Positions 19,584 to 47,958 of a stretch of DNA of 64,000 bases are shown here, piece by piece. The first letter of the stretch is position 1; every line of letters starts with the position of its first letter. Where the stretch lies: contig OZ253564.1 in the NCBI GenBank assembly GCA_965262915.1, positions 96,001-160,000 of the forward strand. The letters run 5' to 3'. This DNA comes from Candidatus Spongiisociaceae bacterium. GTDB taxonomy: Bacteria; Actinomycetota; Acidimicrobiia; Spongiisociales; Spongiisociaceae. The notes under the pieces were generated by a model, which saw nothing but the letters and a program-made list of their open reading frames with translations, had not been told where the DNA came from and did no database searches. The position numbers and the translations under genes are program-made.

Positions 19584-20465
19584 TCACTCCGTATCGGTGT
19601 CGGCCACGCCGAGCAGGCCCGCGGTCTGGCTCAGCACCCGGTAACGGCGCTCGAAGACTCGACGCATCACCTCGGCGCCCACCACCACGAGGAGCGAGAC
19701 GGTCACCACGATCACCGAGATGGCGATGACCTGTGGCACGTCCACCGGGTACTGGAGTTGGGCGAGCACGTAGATCGGGAAGGTGGTCGTGGGACCGCTG
19801 ACGAACACCGCCACCGCGAACTCGTTGAACGAGATGATGAACGAGATCACATACGCCGCCACCAGGGCGGGAGCAATGAGGGGCAGGATGATGGTACGGA
19901 AGGTTCTCCACCCGCTGGCCCCCAAGTCCTGGGCGGCCTCCTCGAGGTGGGCGTCGATGCGTTGCAGGCGGGGTATCAGGATCAGGACGATCAGCGGCAT
20001 CAACACCACCACGTGCCCGATAGCCACGGAGGGAAGGGAAAGGGGAAACTCGAGGGCGCCGTTGGTTATGACTTCAACGCTCTTGAAGGTGATCAGCAAC
20101 GCGACGCCGAACACCAGATGGGGTACCACCAGCGGGCTGAGCACCAGGGCCATGATCGGCCCCTTGGCCTTGAACTTGCGCCTGGCCAGAGGGATGGCCA
20201 TCAGGAGGCCCACCACGGTGGCAGCGGTGCTCGACATCAGGGCAATCGTCGCGCTGGTTCGCATGGAGAGCAGGAGGCCGCGGTTGGTGAGGGCCTCCGT
20301 GTACCAGTCGGTGGTGAACCCGGAGAAGGGGAACCCGATCACCGTGCCCTGGTTGAACGAGAAGATGTAGAGCATGGTGATGGGGGCGTAGAGAAAGATG
20401 ATCTCGAAGACGAATAGCCCTATCAGGGCCCGTTTAGCCCACTTGGAGGTGGCGATGTCGATCAT
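19584..20465 (-). CDS. PotC-like ABC permease
   Basis: Hydrophobic helices; LEEAAQDLGAS EAA loop; true start MIDIATSKW overlaps the upstream stop. Confidence 0.9.
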   Translation of the reverse strand: MIDIATSKWAKRALIGLFVFEIIFLYAPITMLYIFSFNQGTVIGFPFSGFTTDWYTEALTNRGLLLSMRTSATIALMSSTAATVVGLLMAIPLARRKFKAKGPIMALVLSPLVVPHLVFGVALLITFKSVEVITNGALEFPLSLPSVAIGHVVVLMPLIVLILIPRLQRIDAHLEEAAQDLGASGWRTFRTIILPLIAPALVAAYVISFIISFNEFAVAVFVSGPTTTFPIYVLAQLQYPVDVPQVIAISVIVVTVSLLVVVGAEVMRRVFERRYRVLSQTAGLLGVADTDTE

Positions 20466-21442
20466 GACTCGGCCAGCTTCCCGAAGCGCACCAGGCGCAT
20501 GAACACCAGCGCTAGGACGAACACCGCCATTACCAGCCACAGGGAGAGTACGGATCCGGTCCGCCAGTCGAGGCCCATGCCGAACAGGTCGTCGATTGCG
20601 CTCCCGAACATGTAACCCCTGGTCCCTCCCACCAGCTTGGGCACCACGAACTCCCCGATGGTCGGGATGAAGACGAAGAAGAAGGACGCCACCACTCCGG
20701 GAAGGCTGAGCGGGAAGGTCACCTTCCAGAAGGCCCGCCACCGGCTCGCCCCCAGGTCGGCGGCGGCCTCCAGCAGCCGGCGGTCCATGCTGATCATCGC
20801 CGCGAACATCGGGAGCATGACGAAGGGGATCCACACGTATCCCAGCACGATCATGACCGGAACCTCCCCGAAGGCGAGGCTCTCGATGGGGTCCCCCACC
20901 TCGCGCAGACCCGACCAGAACAGGAAGGAGTTGATCACCCCCTGCTTGCCCAGCAGCACCTTCCAGGCCATAACCCGCATGAAGAAGTTGGTCATGAAGG
21001 GAGCGATCATCAGGAGCAGCAACGAGTACTTGTACTTGTCGGCGATCATCGCCAGGAAGTAGGAGATCGGGTAGGCAAGGATCACCACGGCTATCGCCAC
21101 GATCAGAGCCATCCGGAACGACTTCCAGAACAGCAGCATGTAGACGCTCTCGCCGGAGAAGAGCAGCCGCCAACTCTCCAGGCTGACCCCCTCCTCCTTG
21201 GTGAAGGTGGCCAGTATCCCGACGCTGTACGCGACAACCAGCGAAACCGGGATCACGAAGAACAGCAACAACCAACCGAGCGGCAACGCCAGCAGGGAGC
21301 GCGTCACCCGATGACGGCGGCGCGCCAGACTGGCCACGCGACCCCCCTTCCCGGAAGTGTCGTTCTCTGATACCACGGCGCTCAATGGTAGGGGTCGGCG
21401 GGTCTCACTGCCTACCGACCCGAGAGGATGCCGGGCAGACAC
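20462..21442 (-). CDS. PotB-like ABC permease
   Basis: LAYPISY, LLEAAADLGAS, PKLVGG; start uncertain. Confidence 0.9.
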   Translation of the reverse strand: MSARHPLGSVGSETRRPLPLSAVVSENDTSGKGGRVASLARRRHRVTRSLLALPLGWLLLFFVIPVSLVVAYSVGILATFTKEEGVSLESWRLLFSGESVYMLLFWKSFRMALIVAIAVVILAYPISYFLAMIADKYKYSLLLLMIAPFMTNFFMRVMAWKVLLGKQGVINSFLFWSGLREVGDPIESLAFGEVPVMIVLGYVWIPFVMLPMFAAMISMDRRLLEAAADLGASRWRAFWKVTFPLSLPGVVASFFFVFIPTIGEFVVPKLVGGTRGYMFGSAIDDLFGMGLDWRTGSVLSLWLVMAVFVLALVFMRLVRFGKLAES

Positions 21443-21529
21443 GTGGTCTCATCGGCTACCGGAACCCGACGGGGCTCTCCGGTCGGAGCCGACTGTCGCC
21501 CGTCGGCAACCCGGCACCCTCCTGACTTG

Positions 21530-21692
21530 GTGGTCTGTCTGCAAAACAATTTGCTGTGCCCTGCTAGCCACCGGCGCCCCTCGCTGCGTTCCGCCTCCTC
21601 GATGTACCGCTGCGGGTACACCTTCGTCGGCGGGCCTTGCGACGAACACCGCTGGCGGCGCATGCCACAACGCCACTTCACAGACAGACCAC
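21530..21692. mobile_element. MITE-like element, family A (long copy)
   Basis: Terminal inverted repeats gtggtctgtctg...cagacagaccac; internal hairpin; homologous to 45148-45242. Confidence 0.7.
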
Positions 21693-21706
21693 AGATTGAC
21701 TGCGGA

Positions 21707-22942
21707 TCAGACTCCGGCCGAGGCCTTGACCTCGATCCACGCGTCGTTCAGCCTGTCGATGTCGGCCATCTTGTCGAGCAGCGAAACCCCGTCCAGTGCG
21801 GCGGGGTTACCCAGTCCCATCACGTCCACCAACAACGGGTTGTCGACGGCGGTGGCCTTCAGGTTGGAGTTCCCGAAGTTGAACTTGTTCGAGATGGTCA
21901 GGGCCGCCTCGACGCTGACCGCCGCGTTCACCCACTCGTGAGCGTGGTAGTACTGATCGGCGCCGGCCATCAGGAAGTAACCGCACGAGAACCCGATGAA
22001 GCCCTCGTCCGGGGTGACGAAGGCGATATCGACGCCTTGTTTGGTCAGCTCGACCCACTGGGTGGGCGCGACGTAGGACGCCACGATGTTGCCCGTAGCC
22101 AGATCCGTCTGGTTGGTGGCCAGATCACTGTACAGAGTAGCAGGCACGACCTTGATCTTCGCCTTCAGGAACTCGACGAGGCGGTCCAGCTCCTCATCGG
22201 TCGGATCGAGCGGGTTGGCCACGTTGTTCTCAGGAAGCTTGCCGGCTACCACGAACCACTCGGCCGAGTCCGTCCAGCTGACCTTCCCCGCCAGGTCCTC
22301 GTCGAAGAGGATGGAGTAGGAGTTCTCCTTGGGCGTGTACAGATCCGCCCGGTAGATCGGGATCGCCAGACCGTACAGCAGAGGAATGGCGTACTGCTTG
22401 CCATCCCGCGAGGTGGCTGCGGTGAGGTTCGGGTTCAGATCCTTGAAGTTCGGGATCAGATCCGTATCCCACGCCTGCACCAGACCCTCGCTCACCGCGG
22501 TGTCGAACACCGCGAAACACGGGTTCCAGATATCCGGCTCGATGGCGCCGAGCTGCAACTCACCCAGAGACGCGAAGCTTCCGGCAGTCGCGGCGAACTG
22601 CGGCTCGGGGAACCTGCCCAGATAGCCGGGCCACTGGGTCGGGACTTCCCGTCCGGGCGGGGCGTAGATGAGGAGGTCGGCGCCGTTCTCCGCCGCCAAC
22701 CCCGCATCACGTGGGCTGAGCGTGGTGGTGGGCGCCTCCTCGATGACGGTCTCGGTGACGGTGATGGTCTCCGTCTCGGTGACGATCGATGTCACCACCA
22801 CCGTTTCAGGGACGGGCGCCGGAGCGGGTTCGTCATCGCCACAGGCGGCCAGCACGGCCGGCATGGCACCCGCGACGACCGCCCCTTTACCGGCTAGCTT
22901 TACGAAGTCCCTCCTGCTGATCGGATCGCGGCCGTCTGACAT
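21707..22942 (-). CDS. PotD/PotF-like substrate-binding lipoprotein with Tat signal
   Basis: SRRDFVK twin-arginine motif, lipobox LAAC, T/E/V-rich linker, YAIPLLYG. Confidence 0.85.
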   Translation of the reverse strand: MSDGRDPISRRDFVKLAGKGAVVAGAMPAVLAACGDDEPAPAPVPETVVVTSIVTETETITVTETVIEEAPTTTLSPRDAGLAAENGADLLIYAPPGREVPTQWPGYLGRFPEPQFAATAGSFASLGELQLGAIEPDIWNPCFAVFDTAVSEGLVQAWDTDLIPNFKDLNPNLTAATSRDGKQYAIPLLYGLAIPIYRADLYTPKENSYSILFDEDLAGKVSWTDSAEWFVVAGKLPENNVANPLDPTDEELDRLVEFLKAKIKVVPATLYSDLATNQTDLATGNIVASYVAPTQWVELTKQGVDIAFVTPDEGFIGFSCGYFLMAGADQYYHAHEWVNAAVSVEAALTISNKFNFGNSNLKATAVDNPLLVDVMGLGNPAALDGVSLLDKMADIDRLNDAWIEVKASAGV

Positions 22943-22973: not shown

Positions 22974-24707
22974 TTATCGCCTCAGCGGAGGGTACACGCA
23001 ACTGGTTTTGCACCTTGACGCGGGCCCGGCTAGCTGAGTGACCCGGACGCCTTCGTTTTCACCATAGTGAGCAGCGCATAGTTTTTTGCCGATGAGTTCG
23101 AGTTTTCCTTCGTCGCGCAAGCGTCGCAGTAGGCGGCTGGCCCTCTCAGAAGTGATCTGGCACAGATCGGCCGCTTCACGGCGTGCGATGGAGCCGTGGC
23201 GATCGACAAAAGTCAGCACCATCTGCTCCTGCTGGATTTCGTCGAAACCCCTAACACGTACGTATTCCGCGAGTTCCCCGAAGCGGCGATAGAGGCTAGG
23301 GGCGAGATTGTAGGTACGAGCCTTGGTCCGGCCGCGGGCCTCGACGAGTCCACGGTCGGCGAGACGGTTGAGAACGGCGCGCGCCTCACGTTCGCCGACT
23401 TGAAGAAGCTCGGCCGCCCGAGCGGTCGTGATGCGGCGTTCGATGCGAACCTCTTGAAGAACCAACAGGTCCTCGAGCGAGAACGGTCGACCACGCTGCC
23501 GGGCCTCGCCGATAAAACCGGCGAGTTCTTTGTCGGCGGGCCCCGGCCTGACCCGCACCACCACGCAAGTGGTGTTGCTCCGGCTGTAGTCAGGGGCTGG
23601 CCGTCCCAACTCCAGTTGGCTCTCGAAAGCTCGGTTGATGCCTCGGCCGGTACGCTCGACCAGCCCGGCGCGCTTAAAGGCGTCAGCCAGGGCAGGATTA
23701 CGGGCCCGTGGCGGCGTCGTCAGCAAGTTCGAAATGGTAACTCCCTCTGGAAAGCCGCCGGGGTTGAATACGGTGAGGCCCGCATTGCTGACCTCGACAA
23801 GCGTGGAACCTGACGCGGTGTAGTCGCGGTGTACGAGGGCGTTCGCGATCAGTTCACGAACCGCAACATCGGAGAAACGCGGGAGCGGGAGCCGAAGCAA
23901 CCCTATCTCGATCTCCTCCTCGGGGTTGCGGGCCTTGACCCGGTCATACATCTCGACCATCGCCCGCAGGAGTGGGGTACGACTGATCTCGTTGTTGCGA
24001 ACTTCAAGGCCATCGAGTTCCTGGAATCCGATCTCGTAGGCGGGAAGGTGGCGTCTGATAGCTTCCTCGCTTCCGAACAGCAGGAGGGAACCTACGGTCA
24101 ACTCACCAGCACTACTGAGAAGATCAAGGGCCCCGAGAAGGTCGGGATCGGAAAAGTTTGCGAGAATTCCGTCGCCGCCGGTGCTGGCCAGCTCGCGAAA
24201 CCGAGCCAACTCGGTAGTCGATAGGTCATCGATGCCGACGTCTCTAATCGGGACTTTGGAGAAGTCTTGAGCACCAACGCTACTGACGCGAGCCAGCACC
24301 TCGTGGGGCTCCATCGGTAGACATTGCGGCTTACCCTTAGCATCGATCGTCCGTCGAAGATACTTCCCGCCGCTGGTGGCCACCACGGTTGGAGGCGTAG
24401 GGACACGTATCACGAGTACATCGCCACCATCGGTGGTAGCGACCGCTGCCGAAACGTCGACAGAAGGCCGGGTTCGGCTCAGGATCAGCGCTTCGACTCG
24501 AGTAGGGTCGGTATTGGTACCGTGTCGCGGCTCCGAACCGATCACCCGCCCGCTGTCAGCAACGCCCACAAGTAAATATCCCCCGCTACCGTTGGCAAGG
24601 CACACCACCGCCTCTACGAGTTCGGTATCGTTGGCTTGCTCCTTGAATTCGACCGTTCTGCTCTCACCATCGGTCAGAAGACGTCGAAGCTTCGGCGTAT
24701 CCATCAT
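22974..24707 (-). CDS. AlbA_2 (Schlafen-like) + HATPase_c_4 + winged-HTH protein
   Basis: GESRTVEFK, VCLANGSGGYLLVGVAD, RELIANALVHRDY, RNPALADAF..GLVERTGRGI; C-terminal HTH repeats; atypical codon usage. Confidence 0.85.
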   Translation of the reverse strand: MMDTPKLRRLLTDGESRTVEFKEQANDTELVEAVVCLANGSGGYLLVGVADSGRVIGSEPRHGTNTDPTRVEALILSRTRPSVDVSAAVATTDGGDVLVIRVPTPPTVVATSGGKYLRRTIDAKGKPQCLPMEPHEVLARVSSVGAQDFSKVPIRDVGIDDLSTTELARFRELASTGGDGILANFSDPDLLGALDLLSSAGELTVGSLLLFGSEEAIRRHLPAYEIGFQELDGLEVRNNEISRTPLLRAMVEMYDRVKARNPEEEIEIGLLRLPLPRFSDVAVRELIANALVHRDYTASGSTLVEVSNAGLTVFNPGGFPEGVTISNLLTTPPRARNPALADAFKRAGLVERTGRGINRAFESQLELGRPAPDYSRSNTTCVVVRVRPGPADKELAGFIGEARQRGRPFSLEDLLVLQEVRIERRITTARAAELLQVGEREARAVLNRLADRGLVEARGRTKARTYNLAPSLYRRFGELAEYVRVRGFDEIQQEQMVLTFVDRHGSIARREAADLCQITSERASRLLRRLRDEGKLELIGKKLCAAHYGENEGVRVTQLAGPASRCKTSCVYPPLRR

Positions 24708-24827: not shown

Positions 24828-25370
24828 CTACGCTCGGGCGCGTTCTATGCGGAGTTCCACTCCCTGGTTCTTCCAGACGAAATCGCCCGCCCGGCGAAAG
24901 GCTTCCATGCCGTCGGCCGCCACCCGGGCGAAGACATTGGTGAGGCCGACGCCTCCCGTGTCCCCGTAGAACATGGCGATGATCATACGGTCCGGCCAGT
25001 AGGCGATGTTGCCGGCCTCCTGGGCCTTGTACTGGTTCTCCGGACCGAGGTAGGTCCTGATGGGGAACATGAGCTCGTCGCCGGCGAGGCGGGCGTGGTT
25101 GACGGTTCCCGACAGGGGGAGCAGATCATAGATGGCAGACGCGGTTGCCGGCGCCTCGTCGAAGAGCATCGTCGCGCGGATCTGCTCGCCGGCCACCAAG
25201 ATGGCGATGTCACCCTTGCGGTCCTTCGGTCCCTCGATGATGCGGAGCCCGGCCAGGTTGGCCTCGTCCCGCGCCGCTGCGGTGATGATGGTGGGGGGCT
25301 CGGCAACCAACTCGGTCTTGCCCTGCCGGATCAGGGCCCGGATATCCTCGGTGGTCAGTATCTGGCGCAT
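24828..25370 (-). CDS. DUF3830/cyclophilin-like protein with EutQ-like N-terminal module (putative BMC cargo)
   Basis: APATASAIYDLLPL....NHARLAGDEL, GNIAYW, MFYG, NVFARV; N-terminus ILTTEDIR...IITAAARDEA...GLRI; last gene of the BMC operon. Confidence 0.75.
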   Translation of the reverse strand: MRQILTTEDIRALIRQGKTELVAEPPTIITAAARDEANLAGLRIIEGPKDRKGDIAILVAGEQIRATMLFDEAPATASAIYDLLPLSGTVNHARLAGDELMFPIRTYLGPENQYKAQEAGNIAYWPDRMIIAMFYGDTGGVGLTNVFARVAADGMEAFRRAGDFVWKNQGVELRIERARA

Positions 25371-25374
25371 CGGT

Positions 25375-26010
25375 TCATCTCTCTCCGAGAGCCTCGAGCG
25401 CTACCCGGTGCCCGATCTCCACCTCGGCTTCGCTCCCGGCGAGGATCAGGCGGCCGCTGGCGCCATGGAGCCTCACGAGCACCATGCGCAGCGAAGTGTG
25501 CTTCTCGACCTCGTTGGCGGCCAGCGCCACATAGGCGGCCGGCGCCGTCTCCACGACCAGCATCGCATCGCCTTCCCTGAGCCGGTCGCGCACGCCCATC
25601 CGGTTCACCAGCCCGGCTTCCGTGGCGGTCACGTTGTTCACGATGCGGGTGGTCACCGACGAAGGGGCAATTCCCGGCGCCGAGGAACTGCCGATCATCG
25701 CCAGGATGATCGTTCCGGCATGGCGGACTGTGTCGGGGTTGGCCGAGTGGAGCTCGAGCGTCCCGTAGCGTCGCTCGGCGACCAGCATCGAGGAGTCGGT
25801 CTCGGTGTTCTTCAGCGCCGCGTTGGCCAGGGAGAAGACCAACGTCGCCGGCGCCACCTCCACGTACAGCTGTGACATCCCTTCCAATGCCGGACCTCGC
25901 TGCTCGTTCCGGCCCACGTATGCCGCCCAGGTGGGCTGCATCTTGTCGACGTACACATAGGCCCGCAGGGAGTTGCCGCCCCCGCTGCCCGATTGCCCTG
26001 GACTCGTCAC
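25375..26010 (-). CDS. BMC-T shell protein, permuted tandem type (CsoS1D/CcmP-like)
   Basis: LRAYVYVDKMQPTWAAY, YVEVAPA, ERRYGTLELHS, VETAPAAYVALAANEVEK, GRLILAG; GTG start after RBS. Confidence 0.9.
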   Translation of the reverse strand: MTSPGQSGSGGGNSLRAYVYVDKMQPTWAAYVGRNEQRGPALEGMSQLYVEVAPATLVFSLANAALKNTETDSSMLVAERRYGTLELHSANPDTVRHAGTIILAMIGSSSAPGIAPSSVTTRIVNNVTATEAGLVNRMGVRDRLREGDAMLVVETAPAAYVALAANEVEKHTSLRMVLVRLHGASGRLILAGSEAEVEIGHRVALEALGER

Positions 26011-26011
26011 C

Positions 26012-26278
26012 TCAGCCTCCCGGATCGTGGCTTGCTTCGTCGACGATGCCGATGACGGTGGCATCCGTCGGGACCGACGCGGTAGCTTCGGGAACCCTCG
26101 CGGCGCTCCCCTGGGCAACCAGCACCAGGTCACCGGACCCGGCGCCCACAGTGTCCACGGCCACGAACGACGACCCCCGGCCGGCGCCCTCCGGCCGGAC
26201 CACCAGCAACTTGGCCCCTCCTATTCCGCCGGTGCGCACCGTCATGACAGTGGTTCCCGTAACACGGCACAACAACAT
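26012..26278 (-). CDS. BMC-P vertex (pentamer) protein, EutN/CcmL family
   Basis: MLLCRVTGT.V.T, KLLVV, VAVDTVGAG.GDLVLV.QGSAAR, DATVIGIVD. Confidence 0.95.
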   Translation of the reverse strand: MLLCRVTGTTVMTVRTGGIGGAKLLVVRPEGAGRGSSFVAVDTVGAGSGDLVLVAQGSAARVPEATASVPTDATVIGIVDEASHDPGG

Positions 26279-26355
26279 CGATGCCTCCTCGCTCTCGCTC
26301 GGCTAGCTGGTCCCGGCCGGTTCGCGCTCGTGTCGCGCGAGCCGGCTCCGCAGGA

Positions 26356-26634
26356 TCAACCGCCCAGCAGTGCGCTGACCTTGCCCAAGTCCTCGTGGGG
26401 CTTGGGAATGAGATGGGCCGAAACGAGCTCACCGACCTTCTTGGCCGCGGCCGCGCCGACATCCACCGCCGACTTCACCGCGCCGACCTCGCCCTGCACC
26501 ATGATCGTGACGTAGCCGCCGCCGATCACGTCGCGGCCGATGATCTCGACGCGGGCCGCCTTGGCCATCGCGTCGGCCGCCTCGATCGAGCCGACCAGGC
26601 CACGGGTCTCGATCAACCCTAGAGCACCTTCCAT
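26356..26634 (-). CDS. BMC-H hexamer shell protein (PduA/EutM family)
   Basis: ALGLIETRG, EAADAMAKAA, IGGGYVT, GEVGAVKSAV, AHLIPKPH. Confidence 0.97.
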   Translation of the reverse strand: MEGALGLIETRGLVGSIEAADAMAKAARVEIIGRDVIGGGYVTIMVQGEVGAVKSAVDVGAAAAKKVGELVSAHLIPKPHEDLGKVSALLGG

Positions 26635-26728
26635 TATCCGAACCTCCCCGGGAGATTGTTATCTGCTTGTCCGCGAAGCGTTTCGTCGTAGCCCACTGGC
26701 AACGCCGCCCGTCTCACAGACAGTCCAC

Positions 26729-28519
26729 TCAGTTGTCCTCGTACCAGTCGTTGAAGCCACGCCCGATATTGACGTGCACGTTCTTGGTTTCCATGTACTC
26801 GTGTAGCGACTCCAGACCCAGGTCGTGGCCGGTACCGCTCTCCTTGTAGCCACCGAAGGGCGCCTCGCTCGGGTAGACCCCGAAGTGGTTGACCCAGATC
26901 GAGCCGGCCTCCAAGTCCCGCGCCACTCTATGCGCCCTGCCTACATCGGTGGTCCAGATCCCGGCTGCCAATCCGTAACGGACGTCGTTGGCGAGCCGGA
27001 CCGCCTCCTCCTCGCCGGTGAACGGCATCACCACCGCTACCGGACCGAATATCTCCTCCTGCGAGATCCGGAATCCGGGTTCGACGTCCACGAAGCAGGT
27101 GGGCCTCATGAAGTTGCCCCGCGCGAGTTCGGGATCGTCGGGCGGGGTCCCCCCGCCGATGACTGTGGCTCCCTCGGCCCGGCCGATTTCCACGTACTCG
27201 TAGACCCGCTCCATCTGCCGCTCGTTCACCAGGGGCCCCAACTGGGTAGCCCACCGCCACGGAAGCCCGATCCGGATCGACGCCGCCCGAGCGGCGAAGC
27301 GCTCCACGAAGTCATCGTAGACGGACCGCTCCACGAGGATTCTCGAACCGGCGGAGCACACCTGCCCCTGCGCCAGGTAGATACCGAACAGGGCGCCGCT
27401 CACCGCCCGGTCCAGGTCGGCATCGGCAAAGACGATGGACGGCGACTTGCCGCCCAGTTCCAGTGACACCCGCTTGATGGTACCGGCCGACCCGCGCATG
27501 ACCGAACGGCCGACGACCGTCGATCCGGTGAAGGCGATCTTGTCCACTCCCCGGTGCTCGACGAGTGCCTGGCCCGCAACCTCGCCGGCGCCCGGGACCA
27601 CGTTGAAAACCCCGGGAGGCAGCCCGGCTTCCAGGCAGATACGGCCCAGTTCCAGGCAGGAAAGGGGGGCCAGCTCCGGCGGTTTGAGCACCACGGTGTT
27701 GCCAGCCGCCAGGGCCGCGGCGGCCTTGCGACAGGCGATGTGCAGGGGGAAGTTCCAGGGGATGATCATGCCCACCACCCCCATCGGCTCCTTGCGCACG
27801 TAGTCGAGGGAGTCCTGCGGAAGGGCGAGCACCCTACCGTCGATAGCCCGTACCAGGCCCTGGAAGAACCGGAACGGATCCCACGAGGCGGGCAGGTCGA
27901 TCAGGGTGGTCTCCCGTATCGGGCGCCCCACGTCCTGGCTCTCCACCTTGGCCAGGAACTCGTGCTCCCCCTCGATACGCTCCGCGACCTTGAGCAAGAG
28001 GCCGGCACGCTCGGCGGGATCGAGCACCCGCCACCTACGGAACGCCCTCCGGGCGGACCGGACCGCCAGATCCATGTCCTCCGCGGCGGCGGACGCCACC
28101 TCGACGATCGTCTCGTTGGTGGCCGGATCGACCGAACGGTTGGTAGCGCCTCCGGCGGCGTCCCTGAACTCACCGTCGATCAGGAGTTTGGGATGCATGC
28201 GGGCGGGGTCCGGGAGGCCCTCGAAGCGGGGCTTGGCCGCCGTGGCCGCTCTTGGAGGTAACGGTGCATCCCGAGCCGCGGTCACCCGTGGCGGCGGGGG
28301 AGGCGGTGCGGGGATGCTCGGTCGCCGCCTCCGGGCCGGCCCATCGACTGCGGTGGTCCGCGGGGCGGCCAGGCGTGACCCCTCCACCAGCCTCACACCC
28401 AGACGCCGGGCCTCGTCTAAGGCCGCGTCGGTCAGCACCGTCCCCTCGCGCATCATCAACTCGAACTCGCCGATCTCCGCCAGCCCCCGGATGTCCTCGC
28501 TGGTCACGAACCGTCTCAT
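26729..28519 (-). CDS. Non-acylating aldehyde dehydrogenase with EutQ-like N-terminal module and Pro-rich linker
   Basis: PWNFP, FTGST, LELGGKS, GQVCSAGSR, EEIFGPV, PFGGYKESG; about 110-aa N-terminal extension. Confidence 0.93.
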   Translation of the reverse strand: MRRFVTSEDIRGLAEIGEFELMMREGTVLTDAALDEARRLGVRLVEGSRLAAPRTTAVDGPARRRRPSIPAPPPPPPRVTAARDAPLPPRAATAAKPRFEGLPDPARMHPKLLIDGEFRDAAGGATNRSVDPATNETIVEVASAAAEDMDLAVRSARRAFRRWRVLDPAERAGLLLKVAERIEGEHEFLAKVESQDVGRPIRETTLIDLPASWDPFRFFQGLVRAIDGRVLALPQDSLDYVRKEPMGVVGMIIPWNFPLHIACRKAAAALAAGNTVVLKPPELAPLSCLELGRICLEAGLPPGVFNVVPGAGEVAGQALVEHRGVDKIAFTGSTVVGRSVMRGSAGTIKRVSLELGGKSPSIVFADADLDRAVSGALFGIYLAQGQVCSAGSRILVERSVYDDFVERFAARAASIRIGLPWRWATQLGPLVNERQMERVYEYVEIGRAEGATVIGGGTPPDDPELARGNFMRPTCFVDVEPGFRISQEEIFGPVAVVMPFTGEEEAVRLANDVRYGLAAGIWTTDVGRAHRVARDLEAGSIWVNHFGVYPSEAPFGGYKESGTGHDLGLESLHEYMETKNVHVNIGRGFNDWYEDN

Positions 28520-28531
28520 GGCGTCCCCACC

Positions 28532-29347
28532 TCAGACCAGCTCATCGACGATTCCCCGCGCTTCGGACAGGGTAAGGACATGGTAGGAGTCCTGGGCCAC
28601 TCGCTCGCGGAAGTCGGTCACGGTCCAAGGATCGCCTCCGTACTCCCGGTCCTCATCGGTGAGTTCCTTGGGCTCGATCAACGTACCGGGGGTATGGATA
28701 CAGGCCACTTCCTGGGAGGTCATCCCGTCCGGTGCCAGGCCGATCCACATGAGCCCGAGGTCGGGGCGTGCCAGGAAGAAGGGGGGAACTCCCAGATCGA
28801 AGCCGTGCGCGGCCAGGCTTTCGGTCAGGAAGGGGGCCAAGTCGTGGGGGTGCAGATCGGTGTGCAGATAGGTGTGGAAGTGCTCCGTCTCGTGGTCGGC
28901 GAACCACCCGAGTACCTGCTGCCAGTGGTCCGACGCCACGTACGAGCGAATCCCGTCGCGGTCTGCTCCGGTGGCCCTCCTCGGCCCGACATCTTCCAGG
29001 TAGCTCCGTTCTCCCTCGTCGGTCCACACCTCCAGGAAGTCATCGGGGGCGGGAGCGATGACCGAGGAGTCGTCGTAACGCCACACGACGTTCAGCACCG
29101 GCCGGACCTCCGGGTAGATCTTGATCCATCCCCACTCCCCGACGAAGGCGTGGCCCACGTTGCGCACCCGGCGGCCGATCCGGTCCAGGTACTCAACGAA
29201 CAGGAACTCCAGCGAGAGCGGATGGACGGCGGTGGTCACCCTGGCCTCGAAGAAGCTGACCCCCGTATCCTCCAGCAATGCCTGGGCGTCGGCCCACGCA
29301 TCCGAGCGGAAGAAGTCGAGGAGCCCGTCCCGCAGCGTCGTAGGCAT
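28532..29347 (-). CDS. Hypothetical protein with internal two-fold repeat (paralog of 44318-45127)
   Basis: Fills the operon slot; FFRSDAW...TAVHPLSL recurs as YVASDHW...TDLHPHDL; paralog present in the window. Confidence 0.8.
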   Translation of the reverse strand: MPTTLRDGLLDFFRSDAWADAQALLEDTGVSFFEARVTTAVHPLSLEFLFVEYLDRIGRRVRNVGHAFVGEWGWIKIYPEVRPVLNVVWRYDDSSVIAPAPDDFLEVWTDEGERSYLEDVGPRRATGADRDGIRSYVASDHWQQVLGWFADHETEHFHTYLHTDLHPHDLAPFLTESLAAHGFDLGVPPFFLARPDLGLMWIGLAPDGMTSQEVACIHTPGTLIEPKELTDEDREYGGDPWTVTDFRERVAQDSYHVLTLSEARGIVDELV

Positions 29348-29403
29348 CAAGGCCGCCCGGACCTAACCGGACCGGTCCGACACGGCGCCTGCCACCGGAA
29401 CGA

Positions 29404-30462
29404 TCACAGGTGGATCACCTGCTGGGTCTCGGCTGATTCGTAGGCGGCGAAGACGACTTCCATGGTCTTGGCATTGTCGGACGCCACGGTGACCGGAGGG
29501 ATGCCATTGTCCAGGTAGTCGAGGAAGGCCATGTAGCAGCCGACGGTTCCCTCCCTGAGCTCGTCCGCCGGCCAGGGAGCCGAATACCCGACCGTGTGCC
29601 CGCCCGGGGACTTGGTGTCCGTCGGTGGATAGTGCCAGCCCTCGAGACCAGGCTTGTCGGTATAGATCCTGTAAGGGTGCTCGGGCTGGTTGATGAACAC
29701 CGAGCCGAGGGTGCCGTCGATCCGCATCCGCATCACGTACTGGTCGCCGCGGGCCGACACCCAGCACTCATCGATACGGGCGATCACCCCGTTGTCGAAC
29801 TCCATCGTGATCATCGCGAAGTTCTCCCCGGCCAACTCCTGGGTCTGGATCTGGCGGGTCATCGCATGCACCCGTGCCACGTCATCATCGACCAGGTGGC
29901 GGATCACGTCTATGTAATGCACGTCCTGCTCGTACATGAGGAACCGTTCCTGGTCCCGCCGGTAGGTGGGGTCGATGTCGTTGATGAACTCCTCCACCCG
30001 GACGTGGAAGAGGTCACCTATCAGCCCGGCGTCGATCCGCGCCTTGGCGTCGATCACGTCCGGGTACCACCAGAAGTTCTCGGCGATCATGAACTTGATG
30101 TCGCTGTCCTCCACCACCTGGACGAGTTCCGCCACCTCCTCGGGTGAGGCGGCCATCGGCTTCTCGCATATCACATGCACGCCGGCCGCGGCCGCCGCCT
30201 TGGTGACCGCCAAGTGGAGGAAGGGAGGCACGCAGACGGAGACGATGTCCAGGTCGGCCTGGCTGATCATCTCCTCGAACGAGCCGTACACGTCGGGGAT
30301 CCCGAACTCGTCCGCCCGCTCCCGGGCCAGGTCCATGTTGAGGTCGGCTATCGCCACCGTCTCCACGCCTTCCACGCGCTGCTGGACGGGCAGGTGGTAG
30401 ACCGAGGCGGCGAACCCCGCCCCCACACATCCGACCCTGTAATTACCGTCGCGTCCGGCCAC
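29404..30462 (-). CDS. Gfo/Idh/MocA family oxidoreductase
   Basis: VGCVGAG, ICEKPM, EQDVHYID; GTG start after RBS gaggagg. Confidence 0.9.
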   Translation of the reverse strand: MAGRDGNYRVGCVGAGFAASVYHLPVQQRVEGVETVAIADLNMDLARERADEFGIPDVYGSFEEMISQADLDIVSVCVPPFLHLAVTKAAAAAGVHVICEKPMAASPEEVAELVQVVEDSDIKFMIAENFWWYPDVIDAKARIDAGLIGDLFHVRVEEFINDIDPTYRRDQERFLMYEQDVHYIDVIRHLVDDDVARVHAMTRQIQTQELAGENFAMITMEFDNGVIARIDECWVSARGDQYVMRMRIDGTLGSVFINQPEHPYRIYTDKPGLEGWHYPPTDTKSPGGHTVGYSAPWPADELREGTVGCYMAFLDYLDNGIPPVTVASDNAKTMEVVFAAYESAETQQVIHL

Positions 30463-30481
30463 TGCTCCTCCTCGATCCCTG

Positions 30482-30955
30482 CTAGTGGTCTAGATCCATT
30501 TCTGCGTACCTGGCGCTGATGTCGTCCCACGGCACCAGGGTGTCCGCCCACCAGTGGAGGCGGCCCAGGTACACGCTGAGTTCATGGGTGTATGCCAGGT
30601 ACTCCTCCCGGGTCTCTATGTGATCCAGCGCGTCAAGCGAACTCCGGACCAGGTCGACGCTGTCATCCAGCCCATACCAGTTGTGGAGGATGCCCAATTG
30701 AGCATCGCAGAACATCCGCACCACCTGCTTGAGCGTCTCGAGATCCAGCGACGGGTCCCGCCCGGCGTTGCGCAGCACGGCCATGTCGTCGGCGAAGGCC
30801 CGTGTGTTCTCCTCCGCGCAGATGATCATCGGCCAGCCATAGCCCTTGGTGCCCCGCCGGGTGCGCAACCGGCGCACCTCCTCCGGCATCTCGTACCAGA
30901 TGGCGCTGGTAGCGCGGTTGAGCACCGAGATGGTATTCGCAACCCTGTAATCCAT
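30482..30955 (-). CDS. Stand-alone cucumopine synthase/McbB C-terminal helical-bundle-like protein
   Basis: IW...PEEVRRLR, LETLKQ, LDHIETREEY...T..L..Y..RLH.W....PW resemble the Cucumopine_C domain as recalled; no HMM run. Confidence 0.65.
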   Translation of the reverse strand: MDYRVANTISVLNRATSAIWYEMPEEVRRLRTRRGTKGYGWPMIICAEENTRAFADDMAVLRNAGRDPSLDLETLKQVVRMFCDAQLGILHNWYGLDDSVDLVRSSLDALDHIETREEYLAYTHELSVYLGRLHWWADTLVPWDDISARYAEMDLDH

Positions 30956-31026: not shown

Positions 31027-32073
31027 TCACGCCACTTCCGCAGCGAGGGCCAAGGCGCGGGCCGGGTTGTCGATGACGGTTCCGTAGAGGGTGTCGACGG
31101 ACATGCCCCGATCTCTCAGTGACGGGAGGATGACGTTCATGATGTGGTCCCACCCGGGTCCGCCGAAGCTCGACAGGCGGGCCTTGAGCCCGATGTCGTG
31201 GGCGAACAGCAGCTTGTCGCCCAAGCCGTCCTCCACCATCCACTCCACGGTCGACATCCGGTCGTCGTCGGATACGTAGACACCGTCCGTCGGGCAGGGA
31301 TGGCCCCAGTCGTCCAGCTCGAGGAAGGTGTCGTAAGTAACTATCTCCTCCAGGTAGGGCCGGTCGTCCGTACAAAGGTCCAGGTGTCCGGCGATCACCC
31401 GGCTGGGATGCACCCCGTGCTCGGTGATCAGGAACTCGAGAATGGAGGGCATCAGGCGCTGCTCGTGGAGGGCGTGGATCTGGATGGCGGCTCCGGTGGC
31501 GTGGTGGGTGATGGCGGACGCCTCCAGCACCTTCCACTCGTTGGGTGTAACCGGGTCGGAGGTGCCGATCTCCCCGATGAGCCCGCACCGGATGTCGGTC
31601 CCGTCCGCCCCCGTGGTGATGTCGCCGATCATCCCGTCGGCCAGCTCCCGGGCGGTCATGGAGTCCACGTACCAGGGGTGGGCGTGGTCGACGTAGTACC
31701 CGGTTCCGGAGATGATGTTGATCCCGACGTCGTCGGCGATCTTGCGGAGCCCCCACACGTCCCTGCCGAGACCGAGGTTCGAGGAGTCGACCACGCTCCG
31801 CCCCAGGGCCATCTTGAACCGCCGGATCTCCTGGGCGCTGAGACGCCAGTCGGTGTTGATCAGGTTGTCGCGGCTGCGGTAGGGGAACTCGCGGAGCAGC
31901 GCGGCGTTGTGGGGGGTGACCGGAACGTACGAATCGGAACCCAGGCCCCGGTGGTTTCCCTCCAGGAACCACATCAGGCACGTGAACAGCAGATGCTCGT
32001 GCATCAGGGTCACCCCGAGTTGATCCGGCTCGATGGGACCGTTGACCGTGATGACTTTCCCCAGGTCTTTCAT
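31027..32073 (-). CDS. Phosphotriesterase-family (PHP-like) metallohydrolase, copy 1
   Basis: TLMHEHL, GTGYY, GLIGEIG, IQIH, GHLD, HDIG. Confidence 0.9.
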   Translation of the reverse strand: MKDLGKVITVNGPIEPDQLGVTLMHEHLLFTCLMWFLEGNHRGLGSDSYVPVTPHNAALLREFPYRSRDNLINTDWRLSAQEIRRFKMALGRSVVDSSNLGLGRDVWGLRKIADDVGINIISGTGYYVDHAHPWYVDSMTARELADGMIGDITTGADGTDIRCGLIGEIGTSDPVTPNEWKVLEASAITHHATGAAIQIHALHEQRLMPSILEFLITEHGVHPSRVIAGHLDLCTDDRPYLEEIVTYDTFLELDDWGHPCPTDGVYVSDDDRMSTVEWMVEDGLGDKLLFAHDIGLKARLSSFGGPGWDHIMNVILPSLRDRGMSVDTLYGTVIDNPARALALAAEVA

Positions 32074-32177
32074 GGATCCTCCGTTGTCATGTTCCGCCGA
32101 CAATAGACGCAGCTATTGCACCTCGCATCACGGCCGGTCTGCACCGCCCGATATCGCGAAAGTGGATCCGGACGCGG

Positions 32178-33152
32178 CTACTCAGGACGACCCCCCGGTG
32201 GGGGTGGTTGGCCGGCCATGTCGTAGGGGTCTCCGGCGGTCAGGTCCCACCCGTCGAGCCCGGCCTCAGCTTCTCGAGCCACCTTGTGGATGAGGCGGCC
32301 GGCCTCCGAACCAGCCAGACGGTCGGCGGCGTAGCGGGACACGACGATACTCGTCCGGGCCATGTAGTACGCATGAGGTACCAGGGTGTCCAAAGACCAG
32401 TCGGCATACTCGTATGACCCTGCCTCACGCCACTTCGACGCCATCTCCGGGGTCACCTCGACGAACATCCCCCGGAGATGATCCCGCTGCTCGACGGGGA
32501 GAGCCCCCAACAGATTCCCGAGGTCGTGGGTGCGGGCGGGTCGGCTACCTCCGAGATGGATCAGAGCCTTGAGCGCGGTTTCCATCGCCATCTGGGCGTC
32601 GGCGCATAGACGACACATACGGTTCCTCATCCCGAAGAGGTAGTAACCGGGATCACGGTCCTCCAGAGCACCTGATTCGGTGAGACCCATCACCAGTTGA
32701 TCGTGCACGCCGGATAGTGCCCGGAGGGCGTTGTGGAGGCGGCCGGCAGCCTCTTCCCTGTTGGTGGCAGGCATACCGATCTCCTTCCCCCAGCGCACAC
32801 CGTCCGGTTCCCGGTGATACAACGTGACAGCATCGGCGGTGATGGCACACTCCAGCGAAGTCGACACTTCCGTGGCGCGACGGGTCCACTCCGGCCAGTC
32901 GGTAACATACACGAACACACGGCGACCGGCCGCCTCGTCGGCCAGCCGTCCGAGTTCGTGCGATCTCTCACGCCGGATCGAGTAGTCGAGATCGTCATGG
33001 ATCGCTACCAGGTCGATGTCGCTGTCCGGGCCCGCGTCGCCGCGGGCCACCGACCCGAACACCAGCACCTCCGACACCCCCTCCACCGCGACCGCCTCGG
33101 CTGCTCTCTCGGCGTCCGCCATGCACGGCGGGGATATCAGGGTCGTTGCCAT
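32178..33152 (-). CDS. Fused minimal nucleotidyltransferase (MNT)-HEPN protein
   Basis: FGSVARG...DSDIDL; C-terminal AQMAMETALKAL, RTHDL. Confidence 0.85.
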   Translation of the reverse strand: MATTLISPPCMADAERAAEAVAVEGVSEVLVFGSVARGDAGPDSDIDLVAIHDDLDYSIRRERSHELGRLADEAAGRRVFVYVTDWPEWTRRATEVSTSLECAITADAVTLYHREPDGVRWGKEIGMPATNREEAAGRLHNALRALSGVHDQLVMGLTESGALEDRDPGYYLFGMRNRMCRLCADAQMAMETALKALIHLGGSRPARTHDLGNLLGALPVEQRDHLRGMFVEVTPEMASKWREAGSYEYADWSLDTLVPHAYYMARTSIVVSRYAADRLAGSEAGRLIHKVAREAEAGLDGWDLTAGDPYDMAGQPPPPGGRPE

Positions 33153-33175
33153 GCCCGTGATCCTACCGGCGCCGG

Positions 33176-34315
33176 TCACTCGTAGGCCGGGACCGCACAT
33201 CCCGTGAACACCTCGGTCCCTTCGGTGGTAATGACCAGGACATCCTCGATCGTGTAGGCCCCAACCCCGGGGACGCCCATGATCAGCTCCAGAGTCATCA
33301 CCACGTTGGGGCGCAGAACGACATCAGGTGTCTGGTCCGCCAGCCAGGGCATCTCCACAACCTCTATCCCTATACCGTGGCTGGCGTGGATCAGGTGACG
33401 GGGATCGACCCCGTTGTCCTCGAGAACTTCCCTAATGGTCCGGTCCACCAAGCCGAAGGTCACGCCGGCTCTCATCACACCCAGGGCTGCAGCTCTGGCC
33501 TCGAGCATCCCGTGCCGGACCCTCTTCAATGCGTCGGGCGCCGGTCCGAAATGCGAGGTGCGGGTGAAGTCGGAGCGGTAGCCCTTGTACTTGGCGCCCA
33601 GATCGATCATCACGGAGTCGCCCCGGCCGATCCTTCGCTCCGTCGCGCCGTAGGTCACGCCGCCGAACCGCTCCCCGGAGGACACGATGGGGGAGTAGGC
33701 AACGTTGTGAGCGCCGTGCCCCAACATGGACTCCATCGCGGCCGCGGCCACATCCACCTCCCTCATCCCGTAGATGTTCGGGAGAACATCAACCATCGCC
33801 AGGTCGGCTATCCGGGCCGACCTGCGCACCCGGCTGACCTCCTCGTCGGATTTGACCATGCGCAGTTCGTACACGAGTCGGGTCGCGTCGACGAGTTCCA
33901 CCGCCGGTAGGGTGGCCTCCAGTCTCTTGGAGAGGTTGTGCGGAAGGAAACTACCCTCGACCCCTAAGGTGCGGACACCGCTCGATATGCGTCTTGCGAC
34001 GACAGACGCCGGGTCTTCGGGCTGGTCGTACACGACGTGGTCCAACCAGGTGACCGTATTCATGATCCCGGGACTGGTAACCGCGTAGTAGATGAACTCT
34101 GCGGAGTCCTCGGAGACGTATATGAGCTTTCCGATGCCCTGCGATGTCTCCATGGGCTGGAAGTCGACCAGGTCGATGCCCGTCAGGTACTCGAGGTTGC
34201 TCGGGCTCAGTATGACGAGCGCGTCGATGTCCGCCGCCCGCATGCTCCGGCGCAATTCCCGGATCCTGCGCGTGAAGTCCGCCAACGCGTCCTTGTCCGT
34301 TGGTTCTGCGTACAT
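33176..34315 (-). CDS. M24 family (Xaa-Pro peptidase/creatinase-like) hydrolase
   Basis: YLTG, LRMVKSDEE, IDLGAKYKGYRSDFTRT, HGIG, IEDVL. Confidence 0.88.
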   Translation of the reverse strand: MYAEPTDKDALADFTRRIRELRRSMRAADIDALVILSPSNLEYLTGIDLVDFQPMETSQGIGKLIYVSEDSAEFIYYAVTSPGIMNTVTWLDHVVYDQPEDPASVVARRISSGVRTLGVEGSFLPHNLSKRLEATLPAVELVDATRLVYELRMVKSDEEVSRVRRSARIADLAMVDVLPNIYGMREVDVAAAAMESMLGHGAHNVAYSPIVSSGERFGGVTYGATERRIGRGDSVMIDLGAKYKGYRSDFTRTSHFGPAPDALKRVRHGMLEARAAALGVMRAGVTFGLVDRTIREVLEDNGVDPRHLIHASHGIGIEVVEMPWLADQTPDVVLRPNVVMTLELIMGVPGVGAYTIEDVLVITTEGTEVFTGCAVPAYE

Positions 34316-34485
34316 TCGATACTCCATCCGGGGCACTAGCAGAACGGGGCCTTCCATCCCAGGTGCCCGGCAGTACAGGATACGTCCGATCAATAAGGAT
34401 TGCTTTTGCTTCCGCTCACCGAACCGGACCAGCCCGGGAACGGTGTATATCCTGGCTGACAGGTCAGGAAGAGGGGGAACACCGG

Positions 34486-35460
34486 ATGGCAGGCCAACCG
34501 GCAATCGTCGAGGCCGGGACTCGGGGAGCGCCGGGAGTGACCCTGGGCGCTGTCGCCTTTGCCCACACCTACGACAAGGAGAAGAACCTGGGTCGCTTCG
34601 AGGGCCTCATCGAGACCGCCGCGGGGCGTGGCGTCGATCTTCTTGTCTTTCCGGAGGCGGGGCTGAACGGCGCGGCGTGGAGTGCGGCTGGGGCGTGGGA
34701 GGGACCGCCCGAAGCCCTACGCCATCATTACCAGACCTCGGAGACCATTCCGGGCCCGACGACCGACCGGCTCTGCTCCGTTGCCGGCCGGCACGACATG
34801 ATTCTGGCCGTCCACATGACCGAGCGTCATCGCCATTACGGGAAGGGTAAAGGCGGGTTGTACAGCTCGGCTGTGCTCCTCTCGGGCGAGGGGGTTCTCC
34901 ACGTCCATCGCAAGGTTCACATCGCGGGGCCCGAACGTCACGTCTTCCGCAACGGACGAGAGATCGCCGCTGTGGACACTCCGGTCGGACGCCTGGCCAT
35001 GGCGATCTGCTACGACATCGTCTTCCCCGAGACGGCTCGCGTTGCCGCGGTCGAGGGAGCGGACATCCTGCTGTTCCAGACCGCTTGGTCACAGGCTTTC
35101 GATCCGCCGTTCCTGGACCACGACCCGGCCTTCGCCGGGACATCGAACTACTCGCTCAGCTCCCTGCTGGGGGTCCGGGCGTTCGAGAACCAGATGTGGA
35201 TCGTCGTGTCGAGTGCCGCCGGGCTGGACGAACGTCTCGGTCTGACCTGGTGGGGCGAAGCGAAGATCGTGGGACCCGACGGTGTCACGCGCGTGCAAAC
35301 ACCGCTGGGAGAGGAGGGCATCGCGATCGCGTACGGCTGCGCGGTCGACGAGGAGATCATCCGCTCCCGGACCGAGACGTACTGGGGTGATAGCTTTCTC
35401 TTCGATCGGAGGCCCCGCGCCTACTCGTCCATCGCCGATGAGGACAAGCTCTATCCCTAG
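34486..35460 (+). CDS. Carbon-nitrogen hydrolase (nitrilase/amidase) family
   Basis: Glu-Lys-Cys triad: FPEAG, HRKVH, ICYD; RAFEN. Confidence 0.9.
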   Translation: MAGQPAIVEAGTRGAPGVTLGAVAFAHTYDKEKNLGRFEGLIETAAGRGVDLLVFPEAGLNGAAWSAAGAWEGPPEALRHHYQTSETIPGPTTDRLCSVAGRHDMILAVHMTERHRHYGKGKGGLYSSAVLLSGEGVLHVHRKVHIAGPERHVFRNGREIAAVDTPVGRLAMAICYDIVFPETARVAAVEGADILLFQTAWSQAFDPPFLDHDPAFAGTSNYSLSSLLGVRAFENQMWIVVSSAAGLDERLGLTWWGEAKIVGPDGVTRVQTPLGEEGIAIAYGCAVDEEIIRSRTETYWGDSFLFDRRPRAYSSIADEDKLYP

Positions 35461-43245: not shown

Positions 43246-43373
43246 ATCCTGCCGACACTAGACCGCGCCATCGGACCTACCAACCTACATACAAACACGC
43301 AGGGGGCGGGCCCGCGGTTTGATGGGGGAGTCTCTCGGAGTCTCCCTCGCGACGGCGACCCGAGGCGACTCCC

Positions 43374-43491
43374 TAGGAGAGCGATGGGAAACCCCCGTGC
43401 AAGAGGGGTTCGCTCGCTAGTCCACAACGCTCAGACGAGGTAGTTTGCCAACCAACGAACCTCGCAAGGCTCGTTTTTCAGCACCCTCCTA
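43374..43491. mobile_element. MITE-like element, family B (second copy)
   Basis: taggagagcgatgggaaacccccg...gtttttcagcaccctccta. Confidence 0.55.
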
Positions 43492-43675
43492 CAGCACTTC
43501 TGCCAGGACCGCTCGGGCCTCGGCCAGGGTTATGGGATGGTAGGGGTCCTTGGCGATGAACTCCCTCATCTGGGTGATGGTGAAGCCGTCGCCGCCATAG
43601 TCCCGCTCGGCGGGGGTCAGTTCCTGCGGTTCCATAATCGCTCCGGGTGGGTGGGTCGCAACGAACTCCATCGAC
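43489..43675 (-). repeat. 187-bp direct repeat: displaced 3' end of the gene at 44318-45127
   Basis: Near-identical to 44318-44504; encodes SMEFVATH...AVLAEVL*. Confidence 0.92.
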
Positions 43676-43718
43676 CGACTATCACTACCGACCACCACTA
43701 GGTACTATCCTAGGCTTC

Positions 43719-43949: not shown

Positions 43950-43952
43950 TCC

Positions 43953-44222: not shown

Positions 44223-44317
44223 CAAGAGCCGCGCCTGCCCTCTCACATCGGAGAGGCAGGGGTCGCCTATCACCCTTAACCCCCGACTATCGAGGCTGAA
44301 GCCCGGCGGCGCCATCC

Positions 44318-45127: not shown

Positions 45128-45147
45128 CACAACAACTCCTCGTTTGT

Positions 45148-45242: not shown

Positions 45243-45251
45243 TAGATTCGG

Positions 45252-46469: not shown

Positions 46470-46530
46470 GTCTCAGCCCCCCACCCGGACGGGAGCGGTG
46501 GTCACGGAACGATGGCGGCTATCGGGCCCC

Positions 46531-47955: not shown

Positions 47956-47958
47956 GAA

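Follow-up and report, generated by a model that had tools for sequence, protein, structure and literature searches.

A conserved bacterial microcompartment (BMC) operon of sponge-associated Acidimicrobiia lies in a 64,000-nucleotide (nt) stretch of a Candidatus Spongiisociaceae genome (contig OZ253564.1, positions 96,001 to 160,000; hereafter the window). Two of its genes encode homologues of the two domains that make up the Pictet-Spenglerases McbB and KslB and cucumopine synthase. The β-barrel protein, encoded at 24828-25370 on the minus strand, is named CypL here, and the helical-bundle protein, encoded at 30482-30955 on the same strand, is named CucC. That CypL and CucC are the two halves of one McbB/KslB/cucumopine-synthase-type enzyme, carried on two polypeptides that might form a heteromer and run the retro reaction, is in our judgement an evenly balanced proposition. 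The signature enzyme of the operon is most likely this two-polypeptide fold with an altered catalytic loop. The unusual feature is the microcompartment setting; the split form itself is not unusual for the Cucumopine_C family. The operon suggests a catabolic protein organelle of a kind not described before.

Both genes are exact minus-strand open reading frames (ORFs), of 180 and 157 amino acids (aa), as the initial annotation of this DNA had given them. Their codon-position G+C content is of the coding type in a window of about 65% G+C (for CypL and CucC, 0.87 and 0.85 at the third position, vs 0.45 and 0.41 at the second). In Pfam, CypL matched DUF3830, which the annotation had named as Cucumopine_C, for a check (44.3 bits against a cut-off of 26; E 2.3e-11), Cyclophil_like (E 3.7e-9) and Cyclophil_like2 (E 3.8e-6), and CucC matched Cucumopine_C (PF18631; E 4e-13; 50.2 bits, cut-off 27) over profile positions 3-138 of 141, as a stand-alone helical bundle. 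The quoted motifs are also present in the translations, namely DLLPLSGTVNHARLAGDELMF, FYGDTGG and EAFRRAGDFVWK in CypL, and IWYEMPEEVRRLR, LDHIETREEY and RLHWWADTLVPW in CucC; in the last of these, W and PW are separated by five residues instead of the four given in the annotation, a negligible difference. Within CypL, the DUF3830/cyclophilin-like barrel covers residues 52-180 (24831..25217, minus strand), and includes the NHARLAG loop (91-97), a WPDR motif and the FYGDTGG loop (134-140). Among 15 CypL sequences, 52 columns are invariant and cluster in the pocket motifs NHARLAGDELMFP and GNIAYWPDR..FYG.T.GVG.T. CucC is the sole copy in the window genome and carries an invariant NWYG motif (N92-G95).

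A profile of CucC and its relatives matched residues 181-326 of McbB from Marinactinospora thermotolerans (PDB 3X27, deposited as 'Cucumopine synthase') with an E-value of 1.4e-8, and the N-terminal half of KslB weakly. By sequence, CypL matched only stand-alone cyclophilin-like proteins, i.e. 2NNZ (E 4.4e-6), 3KOP (E 1.3e-5) and TM1367. These barrels are its best sequence-level matches and share the (F/Y)(F/Y)G.T loop; however, no function has been assigned to them and no bundle partner described, and an EutQ-like N-terminal module is absent. The AlphaFold2 model of CypL has a mean predicted local distance difference test score (pLDDT) of 72.4, and in the Foldseek search with it the top ten chains were all KslB, the kitasetaline Pictet-Spenglerase (PDB 9NS6 and others), with a best E-value of 6.3e-5. 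VIA-align comparison of the same model gave Z 11.3 for McbB (3x27_D, residues 1-142; root-mean-square deviation 3.3, 118 residues aligned), 11.1 for the DUF3830 structure 3KOP and 10.4-10.7 for KslB 179-317; ordinary cyclophilins reached at most 8.7. The resemblance of the two ORFs to the two domains of the McbB/KslB/cucumopine-synthase type is therefore borne out by Pfam, profile and structural matches.

McbB is a bacterial Pictet-Spenglerase with the same barrel and bundle architecture, and has the NHAxxxG loop of CypL and the WxxxxPW bundle end of CucC in common with the pair; whereas it is a single chain that forms a homodimer, serves β-carboline biosynthesis outside any BMC operon, and has no N-terminal targeting module. 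KslB contains the same two domains. The initial annotation had described the known enzymes as single chains with the barrel first, which holds for McbB but not for KslB, where the helical bundle precedes the barrel. The domain order is thus swapped between the two enzymes. Enzymes of this type have so far been known only as single chains that form alkaloids or opines.

The relatives of CucC were collected by an exhaustive profile search of 1.84 billion representatives, which gave 201 proteins at E <=1e-3. Among the best 150 of these 201, stand-alone proteins of 130-205 aa account for 118; a further 14 are shorter, one is of 206-260 aa, 13 are of 261-320 aa and four exceed 320 aa. The annotation had treated the split form as exceptional, and this view has to be given up, since the stand-alone bundle is the majority form. 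A fusion scan of 20 longer relatives revealed 11 proteins with a cyclophilin-like barrel at the N-terminus and the bundle at the C-terminus, one (P0100) with the bundle first and the barrel second, and three with Cucumopine_C only, two of these as two matched stretches. A word-index search for longer, fused relatives found none among 1399 candidates, which is weak evidence; the exhaustive search did find fusions. In the window, the two domains lie on separate ORFs of one strand, at a distance of 5.1 kb that holds six other genes.

Some distant fused relatives were also located on plasmids. The tblastn searches against plasmids gave no match with the window CucC or with the relative P0030, and seven rhizobial records with the relative P0014. 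Two of these records were inspected (L029, 8548-9405; L030, 8530-9384); both encode proteins of 284-285 aa with a C-terminal half like stand-alone Cucumopine_C, and one showed a weak Cyclophil_like2 match. Their neighbours include genes for GntR, a Liv-type ATP-binding cassette (ABC) importer, an FAD oxidoreductase and proteins with a B12-binding domain, so that the setting of these fused relatives looks catabolic rather than biosynthetic. As the family is mostly stand-alone and has fused members in such rhizobial-plasmid settings, its functions may exceed those of a 'Pictet-Spenglerase'.

The co-occurrence of the two genes was analyzed in 61 related genomes, comprising the window genome, 28 others of the same family and 32 from eleven other families of the order. 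CucC was found in 14 of the 61, i.e. the window genome and 13 of the 28 family members, and gave no match among the 32 genomes of the other families. A full-length CypL orthologue is present in 13 of the 14 CucC-bearing genomes; the remaining genome (G028) consists of 440 contigs at 83% completeness, and its CucC gene sits on a contig of 3.1 kb. The shell gene BMC-H of the operon (at least 87% identity) occurs in the same 14 genomes. The phylogenetic co-occurrence that the annotation had put forward as a check thus came out positive within the family, with CucC, CypL and BMC-H present or absent together. In a sample of 401 genomes of the phylum, PF18631 was detected in the window genome only.

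The annotation had also placed both genes in one BMC operon, and this arrangement is conserved. The core consists of eight genes in the order CucC, GFO/IDH/MocA oxidoreductase, a conserved 272-aa protein (unk272), aldehyde dehydrogenase (AldDH), BMC-H, BMC-P, BMC-T and CypL, and this order is kept in 13 of the 13 loci long enough to show it, including a metagenome contig (L028) in which CucC and CypL are only 66% and 71% identical to the window proteins. Two more loci lie on short contigs (3.4 and 1.3 kb), and one of the loci counted (L026) looks like a duplicate of another (L015). The CucC orthologues are 89-97% identical in 12 GTDB loci, and the related loci come from Acidimicrobiia, as metagenome-assembled genomes of Candidatus Spongiisociaceae or Spongiisocius.

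The possibility has to be considered that no complex exists, with CucC acting alone like other stand-alone Cucumopine_C proteins and CypL being an independent DUF3830-type protein of the same operon. The prevalence of stand-alone bundles, the solved structures of stand-alone DUF3830/cyclophilin-like proteins (3KOP, 2NNZ and TM1367) and the 5.1 kb between the genes are consistent with this explanation; however, it is hard to reconcile with the fusions in both domain orders, the strict co-presence, the gene order fixed down to 66-71% identity, and the pocket of KslB, to which one subunit contributes the barrel and its partner the helical domain (PMC12012969). We therefore regard it as quite unlikely. 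A complex prediction with CypL residues 50-180 and CucC scored 0.03 and 0.27 against a mark of 0.32, which counts neither for nor against binding. Since fusions occur in both orders, co-presence is strict, synteny is fixed and the KslB pocket is built from two subunits, the comparative data argue that CypL and CucC work together as a functional pair.

The N-terminal 49 residues of CypL (25224..25370, minus strand) form a separate module, which is predicted to serve shell docking or encapsulation. The same module is found at the N-terminus of the AldDH (residues 1-49; 28373-28519), where it is followed by a Pro/Ala-rich linker to about residue 110 and then by the aldehyde dehydrogenase domain; the two copies share 45% identity over 49 aa (pairwise E 8e-14). 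A search with CypL found the module on CypL and AldDH only in the window genome, and it is present on the AldDH of every operon-bearing relative. Two 135-aa relatives of CypL (P0177 and P0178) do not have it. Against the NCBIfam EutQ model, the module aligns with positions 1-50, with E-values of 1.4e-5 (CypL), 1.1e-5 (L028 orthologue) and 0.036 (AldDH). This match is short and far below the full-length cut-off, and the enzyme domain differs: EutQ has a cupin acetate kinase, whereas a barrel or an aldehyde dehydrogenase follows here. In Salmonella, the EutQ N-terminus was reported to suffice for directing GFP to the compartment, with shell binding through its H1/H2 region (PMC12487888).

The other enzymes of the operon show no comparable addition. 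The phosphotriesterase (PTE)-family protein is 76% identical to a paralogue at 42178-43245 outside the BMC operon (residues 10-356 vs 6-352) and has no extra tail, unk272 has a paralogue of equal length likewise without a tail, and the GFO domain fills the entire GFO protein. Because CypL and AldDH are the only bearers of the module, and the paralogues of PTE and unk272 are equally long without tails, CypL and AldDH are the best cargo candidates; both may be encapsulated through their common module, as predicted from sequence. For this reason CypL, with CucC, is favoured as the signature enzyme. The common module also adds support to the proposal of the annotation that an aldehyde would be handed from the pair to an encapsulated AldDH.

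The AldDH (596 aa; 26729..28519, minus strand) matches Pfam Aldedh (pfam00171/PF00171; E 3.1e-170, residues 123-581). Its best NCBIfam matches are BADH, HpaE, StyD and aminobutyraldehyde dehydrogenase, all below their cut-offs. It contains the motifs ELGGKS and GQVCSAG, which we take to be marks of hydrolytic aldehyde dehydrogenases, and judged by these matches and motifs it is of the conventional hydrolytic type. No PduL or Pta phosphotransacylase turned up in Pfam scans of selected ORFs across the window, and the operon does not show the canonical BMC core of a coenzyme A-acylating AldDH, a phosphotransacylase and an alcohol dehydrogenase.

The active sites were compared by profile alignment to 3X27 (SEQRES offset of 21 residues), in which McbB Glu97 is the E of KYGPLTE. 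The corresponding KslB Glu274 is the E of QYGPTTE, and the numbering of V223-S225, Y230, R256, K264 and E274 agrees with the published one (PMC12012969). The annotation had noticed that the segment of the catalytic Glu appears to read FYGDTGG in CypL, and McbB Glu97 indeed falls on this segment. On the amino-acid side the pocket seems to be retained. The invariant NHARLAG of CypL (N91-G97) is the counterpart of the KslB carboxylate loop H221-G226 (HAVVSG) in the alignment, and the backbone loop V223-S225 of KslB binds the carboxylate of the amino acid, i.e. Trp (PMC12012969). Moreover, KslB Phe89, the indole-stacking residue contributed by the helical domain of the partner (PMC12012969), aligns tentatively with the invariant W93 in the NWYG motif of CucC.

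Several observations weigh against a functional McbB/KslB-type pair. The position of McbB Glu97 and KslB Glu274 is occupied by Gly in CypL (G140, or G139 with a shift of one residue) and in most of the close CypL orthologues too, and P0177, with the loop STGG, has no acidic residue nearby. The residues that anchor the keto acid in KslB, Arg256 and Lys264, which are essential like Glu274, align with A123 and I130. The CypL model is poor in just the stretches around the putative active-site loops (pLDDT below 50 at residues 123-129 and 137-141). No targeting module could be recognised in CucC, whose gene is not adjacent to that of CypL, and most relatives of CucC are stand-alone, as described above. 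We also know of no enzyme of the McbB/KslB family that runs in the cleavage direction. As the catalytic Glu and the keto-acid anchors are not kept, the known chemistry is not simply transferable. The fold and the amino-acid-binding part look conserved, and the carbonyl partner and the catalytic details do not.

The loss of the catalytic acid might also mean that the pair is a non-catalytic component for ligand binding, assembly or scaffolding, with a barrel tethered to the shell in the manner of EutQ. The Gly in the window protein and most close orthologues would be in line with this, and so would the resemblance of the N-terminal module to that of EutQ, which links shell and cargo. However, the clustering of the 52 invariant columns in the pocket motifs is not readily explained in this way, and acidic residues are kept in orthologue loops, such as NTEG (L028, P0172 and P0174) and DTDG (L025, P0171 and P0173); KTEG and PTEG also occur. 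In the clade of the window, Asp137 accompanies Gly139. Because the orthologue loops carry Glu, Asp or Gly, the catalytic acid is variable. A non-catalytic role for the pair appears very unlikely to us.

For a catalytic CypL-CucC pair, the following working model is proposed. The common EutQ-like module would bring CypL and AldDH to the shell, and CucC would enter by binding CypL and complete the substrate pocket as the partner helical domain does in KslB. The assembled enzyme would perform imine or iminium chemistry between an amino-acid-like amine and a carbonyl compound. With a hydrolytic aldehyde dehydrogenase in a catabolic organelle, the most economical reading would be that the enzyme acts on an imported amino-acid derivative (N-heterocyclic or N-substituted) and sets an aldehyde free, which the AldDH would then oxidise to the acid. 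Preparation or finishing of the substrate may fall to the PTE-like hydrolase, the GFO/IDH/MocA oxidoreductase and unk272. Other substrates were considered on the basis of the gene neighbourhood, including creatine or creatinine, ectoine-like solutes, hydroxyproline peptides and sugar acids of the Weimberg type, and were rejected as none fits the eight-gene core.

The aldehyde could instead arise from another step, for example ring or ester opening by the PTE-like enzyme followed by GFO/IDH/MocA oxidation, or an oxygenase-type reaction of unk272; the pair would then be cargo or an accessory that performs cyclisation, isomerisation, or hydrolysis or formation of imines. Such a source would suit the absence of the KslB catalytic Glu and keto-acid-binding residues, and the AldDH scores ring-cleavage semialdehyde dehydrogenases nearly as well as BADH (HpaE, E 2.4e-156). 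Genes for PTE and unk272-like proteins also occur side by side at other places of the window and in relatives, both within the BMC operon and away from it. The AlphaFold2 model of unk272 (pLDDT 93.2) shows two β-α-β-β-β-like modules with an invariant His/Glu cluster (H43, H67, E156, H157, H159, H167 and H219) and weak VOC/dioxygenase-type fold matches. On the other side, PTE, GFO and unk272 have no BMC-specific extension and the paralogues of PTE and unk272 look cytosolic, whereas CypL is the only protein that has the module in common with AldDH. The fold assignment of unk272 is also insecure: it has no Pfam or NCBIfam family and no usable Atlas match, Foldseek gave only weak VOC/HPPD-type matches (E about 7e-4, template modelling score 0.17), and the best VIA-align Z in the full search was 5.1, so that its assignment as a dioxygenase was dropped. 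An aldehyde source outside the pair is in our judgement unlikely.

The most far-reaching form of the CypL-CucC proposal is a new BMC functional type, in which a two-subunit lyase of Pictet-Spenglerase fold works catabolically and opens a sponge-derived heterocyclic amino-acid adduct (of the tetrahydro-β-carboline, spinacine or opine type), while the aldehyde is kept in the shell and oxidised by the co-targeted aldehyde dehydrogenase. Taken as a whole we consider this unlikely. If true, it would represent the first catabolic 'retro' Pictet-Spenglerase, and the EutQ-type N-terminal module would be seen for the first time as a general cargo tag outside Eut systems. In many catalogued BMC types the AldDH is present and the aldehyde-producing enzyme is not known (PMC8217296). 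The present locus provides a concrete, testable candidate for such an aldehyde source, from a fold known only in alkaloid and opine biosynthesis. Moreover, the hosts of the operon are uncultured sponge symbionts, and the locus may process a host metabolite. Experimental handles are offered by the adjacent solute-binding protein (SBP), the 49-aa putative tag on two candidate cargo proteins, and the natural variation at the catalytic position between Glu, Asp and Gly.

The closest described compartments are the ARO, ACI, HO and MIC metabolosomes, which also combine a BMC-H/P/T shell with a pfam00171 AldDH and whose signature enzymes are unassigned or unusual (Sutter et al. 2021, PMC8217296). The ARO type is also similar in its non-canonical AldDH type in Actinobacteria; whereas it was described with an AldDH without a detectable encapsulation peptide, a shell without BMC-T, and a locus with ring-opening oxygenases (PMC8217296). 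The main text of this BMC catalogue contains no Acidimicrobi*, cyclophilin, phosphotriesterase, DUF3830 or cucumopine, and its supplementary locus tables may list the locus type. Within the collection of papers searched, there was no paper that joins microcompartments with cyclophilin-like proteins, DUF3830 or cucumopine, none that mentions DUF3830 or Spongiisocius, and none that joins bacterial microcompartments, sponges and Acidimicrobiia. Two papers on sponge Actinobacteriota name microcompartments in their reference lists only.

The shell genes are clustered with the AldDH gene within 25375-28519, all on the minus strand. BMC-H (92 aa; 26356..26634) is the hexamer protein (PF00936, E 8e-27), and BMC-P (88 aa; 26012..26278) is the pentamer or vertex protein of the EutN/CcmL family (PF03319, E 3.5e-24), with NCBIfam matches to CcmL and EutN. 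BMC-T (25375..26010) is a tandem-domain, CcmP-like protein (NCBIfam CcmP, E 2.3e-41, residues 54-249 of the long ORF), and its start is probably the GTG at 26010. A different BMC locus was observed in 8 of the 11 other families of the order (genomes G029-G060). Its BMC-H shares only 46-58% identity, tandem-domain shell genes lie at a distance of about 2 kb, and these genomes have neither CucC nor a full-length CypL.

The remaining genes of the operon are also on the minus strand and encode unk272 (28532..29350), the GFO/IDH/MocA-family NAD(P) oxidoreductase (352 aa; 29404..30462; PF01408, E 4e-27, with PF22725 and PF02894; no terminal extension) and, upstream of the core, the PTE-family protein of the amidohydrolase-fold lactonase/hydrolase type (358 aa; 31027..32103; PF02126, E 2.7e-63). 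The gaps in the operon are from 4 to 94 nt, with 19 nt between CucC and GFO and 4 nt between the stop of BMC-T and the start of CypL. The PTE gene lies directly upstream of CucC in the related loci except L024. Downstream of the operon are an ABC importer (19584..22942, minus strand), with an SBP_bac_8 solute-binding protein at 21707-22942 and two permeases within 19584-21442 by Pfam, and a gene for an S15 hydrolase. The SBP and permease genes follow CypL in eight related loci (L015, L016, L019, L021, L022, L023, L026 and L028).

Contigs of sponge metatranscriptomes cover parts of the operon, with 7-10% of the sampled words; uncovered parts carry no information, and contigs in RNA libraries are no proof of transcription. 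One contig of 1532 nt from X19, at about 93% similarity, extends over GFO and the greater part of CucC, which is a weak hint of expression. The CypL gene is covered only in X15, for which the RNA label is a guess.

Between CypL and the ABC importer, a gene at 22974-24707 (minus strand) encodes a protein with Schlafen/AlbA_2, HATPase_c_4 and HTH domains; it gave no match (at least 60% of the length, E <=1e-10) in the 12 related loci queried, and looks like an insertion specific to the window genome. Upstream, a nucleotidyltransferase and HEPN gene with an MntA/HalB-like N-terminus (32178-33200, minus strand) is located between the M24 peptidase and PTE genes. It occurs in only some related loci (L015, L016, L017, L024 and L026), and both it and the M24 peptidase gene vary among the relatives. 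The longest ORF of a CN-hydrolase (34300-35460, plus strand) overlaps the 5' end of the M24 gene (33176-34504, minus strand) by about 200 nt; its true start is probably further downstream, as the Pfam domain begins at residue 85.

A second catabolic-looking cluster was also observed in the window, at 42178-58856. It contains two PTE paralogues, at 42178-43245 (76% identity) and 48748-49938 (32%), the paralogue of unk272 at 44318-45130 (minus strand; 46% identical), a PALP enzyme at 45252-46469, a PhyH dioxygenase at 46531-47601 and a fused hydantoinase A/B of 1292 aa at 50682-54560, together with a glyoxalase-fold protein, two permeases and a second S15 hydrolase. On the metagenome contig L028, genes for PhyH, a class-III aminotransferase, PALP and an unk272 paralogue lie directly upstream of the BMC operon.

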